A stretch of 64,000 nt of DNA from a virus. The stretch is taken from IMG/VR virus record IMGVR_UViG_3300044632_001319. The stretch is one strand, 5' to 3'. Made by a program: the position numbers and the translations under genes. Shown here piece after piece: positions 51,604 to 56,643 of this stretch. The notes below the pieces were generated by a model. The model was given only the letters and a program-made list of their open reading frames with translations. It ran no database searches and was not told the origin of the DNA. Position 1 is the stretch's first letter. Every line of letters begins with the position of its first letter.

Positions 51604-51918
51604 ATGACCAAGGATGAACTTTTTAAATTACACGAAGAAATGTCTGCCGCTGCGCTTCTTCTCATGAAGAAAAAGAATGCAGATTATGCTGGTGGGGTGT
51701 CTGATCCCTTTGCTAATTTTCGACGCGCTGAAGCGTTAGGTGTTTGTTCTACTGAGCAAGCATTTCTTGTCAGGATGACTGATAAGATGTCTCGTCTTTC
51801 TTCCTTTGCAAAGAAAGGCACATTAGCAGTAGAAGATGAATCTGTACACGATACACTTCTTGATCTGATCAACTATTCGGTTCTTCTTTCCGCCTACATC
51901 AAGTCAAACGTAAAATGA
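51604..51918 (+). CDS. DUF1599 / nucleotide-modification-associated (MazG-like) protein
   Basis: KKNADY, DPFANF, RMTDKMSRL, DESVHDTLLDLINY. Confidence 0.75.
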   Translation: MTKDELFKLHEEMSAAALLLMKKKNADYAGGVSDPFANFRRAEALGVCSTEQAFLVRMTDKMSRLSSFAKKGTLAVEDESVHDTLLDLINYSVLLSAYIKSNVK

Positions 51919-53393
51919 ATTTTTACACAAACGTTTTTTATAATTTTGATTCCATTCTTTATGCTGAGAAAGAGAATGGTGTAACAAAATACAGAAGTCA
52001 AAAATATGTTCCAAAGGTTTATCTCCCATCTAAAAAGAAAACTGATATTGTTTCGATTCATGGTGAATCTCTGGCAGAAATGACATTTGATTCATATCAA
52101 TCCTACAAGGAATTCAATGACAAGTATTCTGATGTTCCTGGGTTTGAAATTCATGGTGACATCCAAACAGAATATCAATTTATTAATTCCAAGTATGGTA
52201 CTGATGTACAATACGATTTTTCTAAAATCGATGTAATGTACATAGATATCGAAACGACCTCGGAAAATGGTTGGCCTTCGATTGAGGATCCCCGTGAAAA
52301 AATCAATGTGATTACTCTGCTGTCAACGAGAACAGGAAGAGCGACTTTCTGTCTTGGAAAAGTAAAGTTGGCAGATATGTCTCGTATATACGAATACGAT
52401 GACGAAGAAGAAATGCTCACGGCATTTCTTGATTATTTTGCAGCAAATTATCCTGATGTTGTTTCGGGATGGAATATACGATTCTTCGATTTCCCATATC
52501 TCATCAGAAGAATCAAGCATTTGATGGGATTCAAAGCAGCAAAGAAACTTTCTCCATGGGGAATCGTCAAGGAGAAGTTTATTACTAGGAATGGAAACGA
52601 AGAACTGATGTATGACATAATCGGCATTTCTATGCTTGATTATTATGAAGTCTACAAGACATTCACATACACGAATCAGGAATCATATTCATTGAATCAT
52701 ATTTCTTATGTAGAACTGGGTGAGAAAAAACTTGGTTATGAAGAGTATGAAAGTTTGACTGAATTCTATCGCAAGGACTTTTCTAAGTTTGTTCAGTATA
52801 ACATTCGAGATGTTGAACTTGTTCAGAAGTTGGAAGAGAAACTAAAATTAATTGAACTGGCAATTGCTCTGGCATATTCAGCAGGAGTAAATTATCAGGA
52901 TGTCTTCTCCCAAGTTCGTACATGGGATGTAATCATTTACAACACACTTAGCAACAAAGGAATTGCAATTCCACCAAAGAAAAAGGGAAGAAAAGACGAG
53001 CAATATGCTGGTGGTTATGTAAAAGAACCACAAGTAGGTATGCACAAGTGGGTAGTATCCTTTGACTTGAATTCACTGTATCCGCATCTCATCATGCAGT
53101 ACAATATCTCACCAGAAACAATCACAAAGGAAAGTGTTCGTGGTGTGGTATCACCCGAAGGCGTACTAAAAAGAGGTTCAGTGACAATGGGTGTTCTTGA
53201 AGATAACAAGAAGAGAAATGTATCAACTGCTGCTAATGGAACTACCTATAGAAAAGATGTGCGTGGATTCTTGCCAGAACTTATGGATCAAATGTATAAA
53301 GATCGTAAAATGTTCAAGAACAAAATGATTGATGCCAAAAAGAATCTGGAAGATATCAACGCAGAAATGAAGCGAAGGGGCTTGACAAAGTAA
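51915..53393 (+). CDS. gp43A: DNA polymerase B, N-terminal part (exonuclease + motif A)
   Basis: DIET, GWNIRFFD, YNIRDV, SFDLNSLYPH; ends in the first fingers helix. Confidence 0.95.
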   Translation: MNFYTNVFYNFDSILYAEKENGVTKYRSQKYVPKVYLPSKKKTDIVSIHGESLAEMTFDSYQSYKEFNDKYSDVPGFEIHGDIQTEYQFINSKYGTDVQYDFSKIDVMYIDIETTSENGWPSIEDPREKINVITLLSTRTGRATFCLGKVKLADMSRIYEYDDEEEMLTAFLDYFAANYPDVVSGWNIRFFDFPYLIRRIKHLMGFKAAKKLSPWGIVKEKFITRNGNEELMYDIIGISMLDYYEVYKTFTYTNQESYSLNHISYVELGEKKLGYEEYESLTEFYRKDFSKFVQYNIRDVELVQKLEEKLKLIELAIALAYSAGVNYQDVFSQVRTWDVIIYNTLSNKGIAIPPKKKGRKDEQYAGGYVKEPQVGMHKWVVSFDLNSLYPHLIMQYNISPETITKESVRGVVSPEGVLKRGSVTMGVLEDNKKRNVSTAANGTTYRKDVRGFLPELMDQMYKDRKMFKNKMIDAKKNLEDINAEMKRRGLTK

Positions 53394-53409
53394 AGTTTAA
53401 TGGTATACT
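53382..53409 (+). promoter_or_regulatory. sigma70-type promoter (probably leaderless)
   Basis: TTGACA-N16-TATACT with TG extension; ATG follows after a 6-nt gap. Confidence 0.75.
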
Positions 53410-53415
53410 ATACCT

Positions 53416-53955
53416 ATGGAAACGAGGAACGTGATTGACCACTACCATTATTGGAAGCATGAAGCGATCATCGCAGACCTTGATGCAAAGCGGAATAATT
53501 TTACCGTTGTTTGTAGCAATCTTTATAATGACTTCAATATTGCTACAGTTATTCGTAACGCGAATGCGTTTCTTTCTAAGCAAGTAATCCTTTATGGAGC
53601 AAAGCAGTATGATCGCCGTGGCACTGTAGGCACACATCATTACACACATTTCAAGCACGCCAAGACCTTTGTTGAACTGGAAGATCAGATCAAGATAATT
53701 CGTGGATCTTACGGAACAGTCAAAGTAATTGGCATAGATAATGTGCCAGGTGCTACGGCAATTGACGAGTTTGTATGGGACTCAAATACACATTATGTTC
53801 TAGCGTTTGGTCAGGAACAAGTTGGTCTACCCGCAGAAATCCTTGACATCTGCGACCAAGTATTGTACATTAAACAGTATGGAAGTGTCAGGAGTCTGAA
53901 TGTAGGAACCGCGAGTGGTATCGCAATGTACGCACTCGCAAGTAATGTGTTTTAA
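53416..53955 (+). CDS. SpoU/TrmH-family RNA 2'-O-methyltransferase
   Basis: N..NIATVIRNANAF, FGQEQVGL, I.QYGSVRSLNVGTASGIAMY SPOUT motifs. Confidence 0.9.
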   Translation: METRNVIDHYHYWKHEAIIADLDAKRNNFTVVCSNLYNDFNIATVIRNANAFLSKQVILYGAKQYDRRGTVGTHHYTHFKHAKTFVELEDQIKIIRGSYGTVKVIGIDNVPGATAIDEFVWDSNTHYVLAFGQEQVGLPAEILDICDQVLYIKQYGSVRSLNVGTASGIAMYALASNVF

Positions 53956-54026
53956 TATCCCGTGGTGAAACGGTATCACAGGAGACTTTGGTTCTCTTTT
54001 TCCTAGTTCGAATCTAGGCGGGGTAG
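53956..54026 (+). tRNA. tRNA-Gln(TTG)
   Basis: TATCCCG/CGGGGTA acceptor, GGAGA-CTTTGGT-TCTCT anticodon arm, TTCGAAT T-loop; no encoded CCA. Confidence 0.92.
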
Positions 54027-54029
54027 TTC

Positions 54030-54113
54030 GGGATTGTGGCGGAACAGGCAGACGCAACAGACTTAAAATCTGTCGATCAATTGATCGTGTGGGTTCGATT
54101 CCCACCATTCCCA
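54030..54113 (+). tRNA. tRNA-Leu(TAA)
   Basis: ACAGA-CTTAAAA-TCTGT anticodon arm, long variable arm, GTGGG-TTCGATT-CCCAC, discriminator A. Confidence 0.93.
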
Positions 54114-54117
54114 TTAC

Positions 54118-54199
54118 ACCAATGTGGCGGAACTGGCAGACGCGGTGGATTCAAAATCCATTGCCTTATGGCATGTGGGTTCGATTCCCACCTTTGGTA
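54118..54199 (+). tRNA. tRNA-Leu(CAA)
   Basis: GTGGA-TTCAAAA-TCCAT anticodon arm, variable arm, T arm, discriminator A. Confidence 0.92.
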
Positions 54200-54219: not shown

Positions 54220-54852
54220 ATGAAGACACTAATCGCAACAGCATTTATCGCAACGGCAGCACACGCAAATCTCACACTCACATTTGAGGATCTGCCTGAG
54301 CCTACAGTACCTTCCTCAAACGTTGAGTTCGTGGTTGCAAGTCCTATCGGAGATTACCAAGGATTTCAGTTCTTGAGCAATCTCGTCGTTCCTGCATCGA
54401 ATCCCGAATGGCAACCATTCTCAGGACGATGGGCATACTACGACATCAAGGATGTGGACTTCGGCGGCTACGACGATGGGCTCGTCGGTGACCGTGCGCT
54501 ATTCACCCCCTATGGGTCGGACGCTGCCAATGGGTTTAGAATCAGTCGAGACGAACTTTGGAGGTTTGTCGGTGCGGACATCACCGCTGCATGGATTGAC
54601 CTTGACTTGACTCTCACAGGATATCGGGATGGTTCGGTTGTATGGAGCCGCACTCTGTCGATCCCTTCTATGGTGAGAACAAGGCTAGAGTTCGATGAAG
54701 TAGCCATTGATACCTTGAAGATCTCAGGGTTTTCTCCTAACTCGCCCATCAACCATTTCATCCTCGACAATTTCTCTTACGAGATCGTTCCCACACCATC
54801 GGCACTTGCTCTGCTTGCGGTTGCTGGTGTGATCCGAAGGCGGCGACGATAA
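54220..54852 (+). CDS. PEP-CTERM-type exported surface protein
   Basis: Signal peptide MKTLIATAFIATAAHA, LTFEDL start, C-terminal VPTPSALALLAVAGVIRRRRR. Confidence 0.85.
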   Translation: MKTLIATAFIATAAHANLTLTFEDLPEPTVPSSNVEFVVASPIGDYQGFQFLSNLVVPASNPEWQPFSGRWAYYDIKDVDFGGYDDGLVGDRALFTPYGSDAANGFRISRDELWRFVGADITAAWIDLDLTLTGYRDGSVVWSRTLSIPSMVRTRLEFDEVAIDTLKISGFSPNSPINHFILDNFSYEIVPTPSALALLAVAGVIRRRRR

Positions 54853-55097
54853 TGTACGGAATCATTACTGAAACAAACCAATTTGTGTCAGATAACCTAG
54901 TAGACTCTTCGGGAGAACCCCGCAAGGGTCTTCTTGTTTTTAAGAAGAAATCAAATGCGGTAACGGAAGCAGAAAGTCTAAACGAAATTCGCAAGAGAAT
55001 GAAAATATCTCACTGCTATTCTGTCCAAAAGGCAACACCCGAGGATGTTCCAGAGTGTGGTATTATTTTAGATGGGTCATGGAAACAAAACTTATAA
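54852..55097 (+). CDS. hypothetical protein
   Basis: 81 aa ORF with TAATG coupling to the upstream gene. Confidence 0.55.
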   Translation: MYGIITETNQFVSDNLVDSSGEPRKGLLVFKKKSNAVTEAESLNEIRKRMKISHCYSVQKATPEDVPECGIILDGSWKQNL

Positions 55098-55118: not shown

Positions 55119-55478
55119 ATGGAATGTATTACTAAATTATTAACGCTTCAGAATCAACTTCGTATTCATCATTGGCAAACCCCATCCTATGCCGAGCACA
55201 AGGCATTAGGTAAAGCCTACGAGGGATTAGACGATCTTATCGATACCTTTGTCGAAACATACATGGGAAAGTATGGAAAAGATACTGAGCAACACAGAGG
55301 CATTGAACTTAAGGGATACGAAACTGCACATCCAATGCCAGTTATAAAATATTTTGAAGATTATTTGACCAACGAACTTCCATCCGATTTGTCAGAAGAG
55401 GATACAGATCTTTTGAATATTCGAGATGAAATGCTAGGTTTACTCAATCAGACAAAGTATCTGTTGACACTTCATTGA
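55119..55478 (+). CDS. ferritin/Dps-like protein (DUF5856-like)
   Basis: HHWQT.SYAEHKAL...Y..L..LID.FVE.YMGKYG...DLLNIRDEM....NQTKYLLTL. Confidence 0.78.
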   Translation: MECITKLLTLQNQLRIHHWQTPSYAEHKALGKAYEGLDDLIDTFVETYMGKYGKDTEQHRGIELKGYETAHPMPVIKYFEDYLTNELPSDLSEEDTDLLNIRDEMLGLLNQTKYLLTLH

Positions 55479-55491
55479 TTTGTGATATACT
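55464..55491 (+). promoter_or_regulatory. sigma70-type promoter for gp43B (probably leaderless)
   Basis: TTGACA-N16-TATACT with TG extension; ATG follows after a 6-nt gap. Confidence 0.75.
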
Positions 55492-55497
55492 TTTATT

Positions 55498-56643
55498 ATG
55501 GATTTGAAATCTCTTTCTAATGATGAATTGTTGAAACTTAAAAGACAAGCAGAACTTGATATTTCCAAATATCATAACTTTCAGTTGGTTCGTAAGATTC
55601 AATTGAACTCTGCTTACGGTGCAATAGGCAACCAATATTTCAGATATTATTCAACTGAACTCGCAGAGGCAATCACTCTGTCGGGTCAGTTGTCTATTCA
55701 ATGGATTGGTCAGGAATTGAATAAGTATCTGAATAAAGTAGTAAAGACAGAAGATGTTGATTATGTAATTTCCTCAGATACAGATTCGGTCTATCTTCGA
55801 TTGGATGTGTTGGTGGAGAAAGCATTCCCAAACAAGGGAATGGTTGATGGCAAACCTGTCCCTCCTCCCGATACCAAGAATGTAGTGAACTTTCTTGATA
55901 AGTCAGCAGAAGAATTGCTTCTTCCGTTCATCGACAAGAAGTTTAAGGAACTTGCCGATCTTACAAATGCCTATGAAAATAAAATGCAGATGGGTCGAGA
56001 GGTTATTGCTGACAAGGGAATTTGGACTGCGAAGAAAAGATACATGTTGAATGTGTGGGATTCTGAAGGTGTACGATATGCAGAACCCAAACTCAAGATC
56101 ATGGGCATTGAAACAACTCGCTCATCGACTCCCGAATTTGTTCGCAAGCATTTGAAGACTGCGATCAATATTACAATGAATGGGACCGAAAGCGATATGG
56201 TTGACTTTGTTGAGAAATGTCGTCAGGAATTTTATTCCTTGCCCCCAGAGGATATTGCATTTCCCCGAAGCGTCAATGGCATGGACAAATATGCGGATCG
56301 GGAATCGATTTATAAAAAATCAACACCAATCGCTGTCAAAGGTGCTTTGATCTATAATCATTATCTCAATCAATTTAAGATCAGCAAGAAATATCGCAAT
56401 ATCCGAGAAGGTGACAAAATTAAATTTCTTATGCTCAAGAAACCAAATCCTCTTGGTGGATCAATAGGAGAAGATCAAGTAATTTCATTTCCTAATGTTC
56501 TTCCAAAGGAATTTAAACTTGAAGGATATATTGATTTTAAAACTCAGTTTGAGAAATCATTTATTGATCCATTGACTGCCATCCTAGATACTATTGGTTG
56601 GTCAACAGAGAAGAAAAATACACTAGAAAATTTATTCGGTTGA
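55498..56643 (+). CDS. gp43B: DNA polymerase B, C-terminal part (motifs B, C, thumb)
   Basis: [42 protein letters not shown], clamp-binding TLENLFG. Confidence 0.95.

Follow-up and report, generated by a model that had tools for sequence, protein, structure and literature searches.

The 64-kb window of the IMG/VR virus record IMGVR_UViG_3300044632_001319, that is, the whole stretch of DNA analysed here, carries a cassette in which a promoter is followed by the gene of a TrmH-like RNA methyltransferase and by three tightly packed tRNA genes. The promoter, the methylase and the tRNAs form a real unit, and this unit sits in the 2.1-kb gap between the two halves of a split gp43 DNA polymerase gene, a point that an earlier note on this DNA had missed. 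Taken as a whole, we lean towards the view that the enzyme is a TrmH-type SPOUT 2'-O-ribose methyltransferase encoded on a tRNA precursor and devoted to general tRNA methylation. As for the parts of this view, the sequence comparisons make it probable that the methylase acts on tRNA, and they give about even chances that its target is the guanosine at position 18 (G18).

The methylase gene (53416 to 53955, plus strand; PF00588) encodes a SPOUT (SpoU-class) RNA 2'-O-ribose methyltransferase of 179 aa. As read from the sequence, its TAA stop codon occupies positions 53953-53955 and the very next base is nucleotide 1 of tRNA-Gln(UUG) (53956 to 54026; ARAGORN anticodon TTG; Rfam RF00005, 53 bits). 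After spacers of 3 and 4 nt come tRNA-Leu(UAA) (54030 to 54113; TAA; 56.4 bits) and tRNA-Leu(CAA) (54118 to 54199; CAA; 53.4 bits), both with a long variable arm and all on the plus strand, so that the three genes score 53-56 bits against an RF00005 gathering score of 29 bits; ARAGORN calls exactly three tRNA genes in the window. The stop codon abutting three packed tRNAs, described in the earlier note, is thus confirmed by ARAGORN, by Rfam and by the sequence, and the promoter that it had placed before the methylase is found at 53382 to 53409. The D-loop GG (G18-G19) is present in all three tRNAs, as also claimed there, although this trait is nearly universal among tRNAs and carries little diagnostic weight. 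None of the three encodes its CCA end, and a CCA-adding enzyme is therefore needed. The tRNA-Gln has a U1-A72 pair, G73 and a C at position 32. Each Leu tRNA shows a single U-U mismatch in its acceptor stem (5:68 and 6:67).

In order to follow this unit in other viruses, we used an IMG/VR scan that yielded 80 loci with a methylase sharing 60-100% identity with the window copy, and read their neighbourhoods by tRNA scans and tblastn mapping of adjacent genes. Among the 77 informative loci, which comprise 75 viral contigs and two small contigs from metagenome-assembled genomes (MAGs) and are mutually related rather than independent samples, 75 have a tRNA gene at most 600 nt from the methylase. 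Linkage in other phages, which the earlier note had named as a check on its reading, is thus conserved. Two architectures were seen. In the polymerase-gap type (loci L001-L052), the N-terminal part of gp43 is followed by the methylase, by tRNAs with variable cargo and by the C-terminal part of gp43. The tRNA sets differ widely: two complete gaps hold tRNA-Gln only (L014) or tRNA-Leu(UAA) only (L012), others have tRNA-Gln with tRNA-Leu(UAA) or with both Leu tRNAs, and six to eight tRNAs are found in the gaps of L047, L048 and L050. In L046, whose gap is complete, there are tRNAs for Asp, Asn, Thr, Gly and Tyr and none for Leu or Gln. The Gln/Leu/Leu trio of the window recurs in the closest relatives. 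In the array type (L053-L080, L083, L084), the methylase lies away from the polymerase, inside arrays of up to 18 tRNAs, with an upstream tRNA-Ile(UAU) 8-9 nt before the open reading frame (ORF; 31 nt in three loci) and, in most loci that have this upstream tRNA-Ile, a tRNA-Glu(UUC) 15 nt downstream. Seven tRNA species were seen as immediate neighbours (Gln, Leu-UAA, Leu-CAA, Asp, Ile-UAU, Glu and Gly). The methylase-tRNA pair hence persists across different neighbours, tRNA sets and genomic sites while the other cargo turns over, and the variable tRNA sets argue against a TrmL- or TrmJ-style specificity.

The promoter is a sigma70-type (early) site, TTGACA-16-TG-n-TATACT, on the plus strand, with 11 of 12 consensus matches and an upstream TG. 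Since its -10 element stops 6 nt before the AUG, with no Shine-Dalgarno sequence within those 6 nt, the methylase mRNA is probably leaderless. By themselves, sites of this kind are not enriched in the window, with 15 found and 15.1 expected from shuffles, but a strict form of the pattern (TTGAC-N17-19-TAYAMT, 5-8 nt before the ATG) is retained in 38 of 51 related loci, which correspond to 23 of 30 distinct upstream sequences, and it is kept also in loci with a different upstream gene. The stop codon abuts tRNA-Gln in 28 related loci. From this layout we infer co-transcription and processing of the methylase-tRNA unit, in which early transcription from the sigma70-type promoter would give one primary transcript with the methylase first, running on as the same precursor into tRNA-Gln(UUG), tRNA-Leu(UAA) and tRNA-Leu(CAA). 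An RNase P cut at the 5' end of tRNA-Gln would then release the mRNA exactly at its stop codon. In the array-type relatives, where the ORF lies between tRNAs, tRNA processing alone would free a message almost without untranslated sequence.

The proposal of the earlier note that the tRNAs serve AT-rich codons agrees with heavy use of these codons by the phage: CAA makes up 76% of its Gln codons and TTA plus TTG 41% of its Leu codons, at 36% GC overall and 27% GC at third codon positions. CAA, UUA and UUG are common codons in this AT-rich phage, and its own tRNAs would provide for their decoding. The methylase gene itself is sparse in these codons (1 of 11 Leu and 3 of 7 Gln codons, a small sample), and the low use fits an early gene that is read before the phage tRNAs accumulate.

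The identity of the enzyme was examined by profile, fold and residues. PF00588 (SpoU_methylase) matches it at E 3.8e-23 and 82.6 bits, against a cut-off of 29.7, over profile positions 2-142 of 142. The AlphaFold2 model (predicted local distance difference test 85, predicted template-modelling score 0.84) has the predicted alpha/beta knot fold, and a Foldseek comparison with the PDB returned 123 matches at E <= 0.001, all of the listed ones being SPOUT enzymes, with a template-modelling score of ~0.7 to TrmH. Aquifex TrmH (1zjr) ranks first, the rRNA methyltransferase AviRb (1x7p) second and Thermus TrmH (1v2x) third. When a family profile built from 33 diverse members was searched against PDB sequences, the top four were enzymes that make 2'-O-methylguanosine at position 18 (Gm18), at 75-86 bits: E. 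coli TrmH (7edc, E 2.4e-23), Aquifex TrmH (1zjr, 3.4e-23), Thermus TrmH (1v2x, 7.4e-21) and human TARBP1 (2ha8, 7.5e-20). The runners-up were AviRb with 62 bits, RlmB with 59, TrmL with at most 51 and TrmJ with 34; a closer profile gives the same order of enzymes. These alignments extend into the N-terminal helix of TrmH, and the phage subfamily has a conserved N-terminal extension of 28 residues that aligns with it. In the profile alignment, N41, R47, E134, S160 and N162 correspond to the catalytic residues N35, R41, E124, S150 and N152 of Thermus TrmH. A close alignment of 18 sequences shows no variation at any of the five; in the alignment of 33 sequences this is true of N41, R47 and E134, with S160 and N162 conserved in at least 90%. 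The reading of the gene as a SPOUT, TrmH-like enzyme in the earlier note was therefore borne out by PF00588, by Foldseek and by the Gm18 enzymes at the top of the profile search.

The phage enzyme shares with the TrmH/SpoU Gm18 enzymes (including eukaryotic Trm3/TARBP1) the SPOUT fold, motifs 1-3, the catalytic Asn/Arg/Glu/Ser/Asn set, a short helix at the N-terminus that precedes the knot domain and a size of ~180-230 aa. It differs from them in its identity of only ~20-24%, in the lack of a C-terminal extension, since it ends 7 residues past the last SPOUT helix, and in the sequence RSLN where TrmH has QSLN. It is also phage-borne and predicted to be co-transcribed with tRNA genes. No match to a PHROG family was obtained for the methylase at E <= 0.001. 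On these comparisons the enzyme is TrmH-like and not a TrmH equivalog, and it belongs to an uncharacterised subfamily, since no curated equivalog cut-off was reached. Candidate memberships of other families were rejected. For TrmL, the single sequence gave 26.6 bits against a cut-off of 190.6, over residues 112-173 only, the N-terminal extension is present, and there are units without Leu tRNAs (L014, L046). For TrmJ, the score against TIGR00050 was 27.2 bits with a cut-off of 167, and the C-terminal tRNA-binding extension is missing. For RlmB, AviRb and TsnR, the RlmB score is below its cut-off and the N-terminal L30e-like domain cannot fit in 179 aa.

Since the tRNA sets vary and the nearest characterised enzymes make Gm18, general tRNA ribose methylation is the most economical reading, and by sequence a general tRNA-hardening enzyme is most likely, rather than one specific for Leu or Gln tRNAs. 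The enzyme would methylate the ribose at a site that all tRNAs share, for which G18 in the D-loop, as in TrmH, is our best guess, and its targets would be the phage tRNAs and perhaps host tRNAs too. Such a modification would stiffen the elbow between D-loop and T-loop and may make the RNA more stable during infection. The tRNA substrate, the target position and the benefit to the phage are inferred.

The subfamily is large and mainly viral in the vicinity of the window copy. An HMMER search of 1.84 billion cluster representatives gave 501 clusters at E <= 1e-10, and the nearest ESM Atlas clusters are ~90-100% viral. Chromosomal homologues were sought in species-representative genomes. Those of Thermoleophilia (Actinomycetota) are 46-50% identical, lie on long chromosomal contigs and cover the N-terminal motif, and those of Patescibacteria (labelled Paceibacteria or Saccharibacteria) are 34-42% identical. 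The likeness of the N-terminus to an actinobacterial TrmH-like subfamily, which the earlier note had pointed out, is thus confirmed in part by the Thermoleophilia copies. One Thermoleophilia genome encodes four SpoU proteins, three of them long and RlmB/TsnR-like. The fourth belongs to this subfamily, no other SpoU protein of that genome being a candidate of the tRNA type, and the best NCBIfam match of the Thermoleophilia orthologue is TrmH, at 66.4 bits. Two small Patescibacteria genomes have two SpoU proteins each, of which one belongs to this subfamily. In a quick IQ-TREE phylogeny, the polymerase-gap copies form one clade (Shimodaira-Hasegawa-like approximate likelihood ratio support of 90) nested among array-type phage copies, and the Thermoleophilia copies (L085-L096, L106) group with the T4-like phage copies with good support, apart from Patescibacteria. 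This suggests gene exchange between phages and Thermoleophilia, for which we draw no direction. Among named phages, the 'tRNA-methyltransferase' of the Rhodococcus phages NiceHouse and Trina (Trinavirus) belongs to the same subfamily, with 33-34% identity over 96% of the length including the N-terminus. These phages differ from the T4-like ones described here in having actinobacterial hosts.

A number of observations weigh against a general tRNA methylase. The rRNA enzymes AviRb, YsgA and RlmB take Foldseek ranks from 2nd to 8th, so close behind TrmH that the substrate cannot be told from the fold alone. Searched as a single sequence, the enzyme reaches 40.9 bits against the TrmH model NF008295, whose cut-off is 227, and a higher 46.2 bits against the RlmB model (cut-off 160), the latter match being confined to profile positions 73-237. 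Conserved motifs peculiar to the subfamily, RN-x-x-D-x-Y-x-x-W at the N-terminus and a D-R-R-G-x-V-G-T-x-x-Y loop, also set it apart from TrmH. With one exception, the cellular members have no adjacent tRNA gene on the same strand, and no tRNA gene was found within 5 kb of the NiceHouse and Trina homologues; because these copies lack tRNA neighbours, the pairing seen in T4-like phages could stem from early expression shared by genes at an insertion hot spot. A tblastn search of 50,697 phage records found the methylase in just 5, of which none is T4-like, and cultured T4-like phages carry tRNAs without this methylase.

Part of this evidence would fit a target other than tRNA, be it host rRNA (as for RlmB, AviRb and TsnR), phage tmRNA (transfer-messenger RNA) or mRNA, with the tRNA adjacency due to early genes sharing a hot spot behind a strong promoter. 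RlmB as the top model for the single sequence, the high fold ranks of rRNA enzymes and the homologues without tRNA neighbours all count in its favour, as does the polymerase gap, a demonstrable hot spot whose contents vary and include HNH endonuclease genes. We nevertheless consider such a target unlikely, since the enzyme has no L30e-type RNA-binding domain and its 179 residues consist of the SPOUT domain and a short TrmH-like helix, since the tRNA association is found again in a second, unrelated genomic setting, the large arrays, and since it is the methylase-tRNA pair that persists as cargo changes. In addition, the diverse family profile puts the Gm18 enzymes more than 20 bits ahead.

A role in conflict was also considered, in which the 2'-O-methyl group would armour or mark phage tRNAs against a host tRNA-cleaving defence or, in a variant, would let the phage distinguish its own tRNAs from the host tRNAs that it degrades. 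The chemistry is established, since 2'-O-methylation blocks transesterifying RNases at the modified nucleotide, and the enzyme always comes with tRNAs and is predicted to be expressed early. That phage tRNAs may counter tRNA-targeting defences has been proposed (PMC10264068). The Pfam, NCBIfam and PHROG scans revealed no nuclease, immunity gene or defence partner in the cassette, however, and the presence of orthologues in the small genomes of Patescibacteria speaks for a housekeeping function. Known anticodon nucleases cut in the anticodon loop, far from G18, and a Gm18 in the D-loop would leave that loop unprotected. We therefore hold the conflict role to be improbable. Its elaboration into a modification-based self/non-self tRNA system, in which 2'-O-methylation would let phage tRNAs survive by analogy with DNA restriction-modification, is to our mind a still longer shot; the threat could then be a host tRNA-directed defence or the attack of the phage on the host tRNA pool.

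The least probable of the readings is the TrmL- or TrmJ-like version of the idea in the earlier note, by which the enzyme would methylate only the co-encoded trio in the anticodon loop, as TrmL does at position 34 of tRNA-Leu(UAA) and tRNA-Leu(CAA) or TrmJ at position 32 of tRNA-Gln, for wobble tuning or to block anticodon nucleases. The adjoining Leu isoacceptors are the very substrates of TrmL (YibK/CspR) in E. coli, with which the phage enzyme shares the SPOUT fold, the B. subtilis CspR-tRNA-Leu complex 9j5p is among the fold matches, the trio recurs in the closest relatives and tRNA-Gln offers C32; yet the TrmL and TrmJ scores are far under their cut-offs and under those of the Gm18 enzymes, TrmL is a minimal domain of ~155 aa without the N-terminal extension and matches only in the S-adenosylmethionine-binding C-terminal half, and the relatives do not keep the Leu linkage, with complete gaps that hold Gln only, Leu-UAA only or neither and with Ile-UAU and Glu-UUC as neighbours in the arrays.

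The setting of the unit is a hypervariable island within gp43. The N-part of the polymerase (51915 to 53393, plus strand, 492 aa) contains the exonuclease, the start of the palm and the first finger helix, with a Pfam DNA_pol_B_exo1 match at E 1.8e-26 and positions 21-145 of the DNA_pol_B profile. The C-part (55498 to 56643, plus strand, 381 aa) contains the second finger helix with K-x3-NSxYG, the palm and the thumb, and matches DNA_pol_B from profile position 145 onward. The two ORFs jointly cover an intact family-B polymerase with the break between the finger helices, that is, a fingertip split. Along its whole length the N-part shares 46% identity with the 491-aa product of the first gp43 coding sequence of Synechococcus phage ACG-2014f, and the two have the same end, ...AEMKRRG(L/V); the C-part is 51% identical to the product of the second. 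Fingertip gp43 splits are reported in T4-related phages (Petrov et al. 2006, 2010, as cited in PMC3061061), among them Aeromonas phages 25, 31, 44RR and 65 and Acinetobacter phage 133. The split itself is therefore not new, since ACG-2014f is annotated with its break at the identical residue and T4-related splits are known. ACG-2014f has the same split junction and likewise foreign DNA between its gp43 genes, but its gap measures ~370 bp and holds two small ORFs, whereas here and in at least 23 relatives with a fully sequenced gap it holds the methylase-tRNA unit plus cargo. Among relatives the span from the methylase to the C-part varies between 0.35 and 5.8 kb, with changing cargo that differs even between contigs whose methylases are 100% identical. 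The gp43 gap is thus a cargo site able to hold a phage tRNA island.

In the window, the cargo downstream of the tRNAs consists of three genes on the plus strand. The first (54220 to 54852) encodes a putative secreted protein, which begins like a signal peptide and ends in a tail resembling PEP-CTERM (P-T-P, hydrophobic and Arg-rich); the gene has ~53% GC in a phage of 36% GC. Its NCBIfam matches are weak (PEP-CTERM, E 0.012; MYXO-CTERM models), and its presence varies among close relatives. Its 55 homologues are all metagenomic, and the one inspected (L142) lies in another phage-like contig, so that this protein cannot be used as a host marker. The second, an ORF of 81 aa (54852 to 55097) of no assigned family, had no match in Pfam, NCBIfam or PHROG and is 42-88% identical at the same place in many relatives. 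The third (55119 to 55478, 119 aa) is a DUF5856 protein (PF19174, E 5.4e-21; phrog_858, E 3.4e-20). In some close relatives, ORFs for HNH homing endonucleases (Pfam HNH, E ~2e-6) lie between tRNA-Gln and the Leu tRNAs (L015 5604-6374; L137 3656-4351; also L001 and L002). No flanking repeats marking a mobile cassette were found, only the two Leu tRNAs repeating each other; the two similar promoters of the window do not form a repeat pair. The second of these promoters, again sigma70-type and TTGACA-16-TG-n-TATACT (55464 to 55491, plus strand), ends 6 nt upstream of the ATG with which the polymerase C-part starts. Sites of the form TTGAC-N-TAYAMT with an ATG 4-9 nt downstream occur only twice in the window, once at each edge of the island, and both would yield leaderless mRNAs, for the methylase and for the C-part. 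Some relatives retain the C-part promoter, and in others a start led by a Shine-Dalgarno sequence takes its place.

The tRNA region of phage T4, with its free-standing segB, is similar in combining a tRNA cluster with small ORFs and homing endonuclease genes, and differs in its location outside gene 43. To our knowledge, the T4 cluster has no tRNA-modifying methyltransferase. No close cultured relative of the present phage was found: when 20 kb of the window were compared by megablast with the same 50,697 phage records, there was no match, and the nearest polymerases are those of cyanomyophages, with 46-48% amino-acid identity.

Several further features of the tRNA arrays in the relatives were noted. 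The bracketing of the methylase by tRNA-Ile at 8-9 nt and tRNA-Glu at 15 nt was seen in L055, L057, L059-L063, L065, L066, L068 and L075, an arrangement that recalls the tRNA punctuation of mitochondrial transcripts; in L074 the upstream spacing is the usual one, but tRNA-Glu lies 310 nt downstream. ARAGORN calls permuted (two-piece) tmRNA genes with the tags ANELAMAA and AAPMAMAA inside the arrays (L060 8626-8939; L063 9622-9936; L065 7074-7388; L068 9965-10279; L083 6520-6839), where they overlap the end of tRNA-Gly(UCC). It also calls a tRNA-Ser with the anticodon ACT (A34) in many arrays (L055 8243-8328, L057 8735-8820, L060 9718-9806 and others), and a tRNA-Asn with an ATT anticodon was seen in L051 (4926-4999). 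Anticodons with A34 are unusual for bacteria and phages, and these may be miscalls or genuine oddities. The two small contigs L083 (JBEGUW010000083.1) and L084 (DKPV01000026.1) come from Bacteroidota / Flavobacteriales MAGs and have phage-style arrays, that of L083 comprising 15 tRNAs and the tmRNA. Both probably represent phage sequence that was binned with these MAGs, and as pointers to the host they are weak at best.

Automatic JGI annotation already names such proteins 'tRNA G18 (ribose-2'-O)-methylase SpoU'. We found no description of a phage TrmH/SpoU enzyme within a tRNA cluster in the literature searched, the coverage of which is incomplete, and a conserved methylase-tRNA transcription unit in T4-like phages, its layout without untranslated regions and its residence in the gp43 gap are apparently undescribed there. 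The purpose of phage tRNA genes is debated, between codon supply, replacement of a degraded host pool and escape from tRNA-cleaving defences. The retention of a tRNA-type modification enzyme together with tRNAs in many uncultured phages and in two architectures suggests that the modification state of these tRNAs matters, and not only their supply. The layout also offers a simple example from nature on which leaderless translation and tRNA-punctuated mRNA processing in bacteria could be tested. If the self/non-self reading were true, a widespread uncultured T4-like lineage would carry its own tRNA-hardening system. Moreover, as the subfamily occurs in Thermoleophilia and Patescibacteria, a single assay would annotate a large family.

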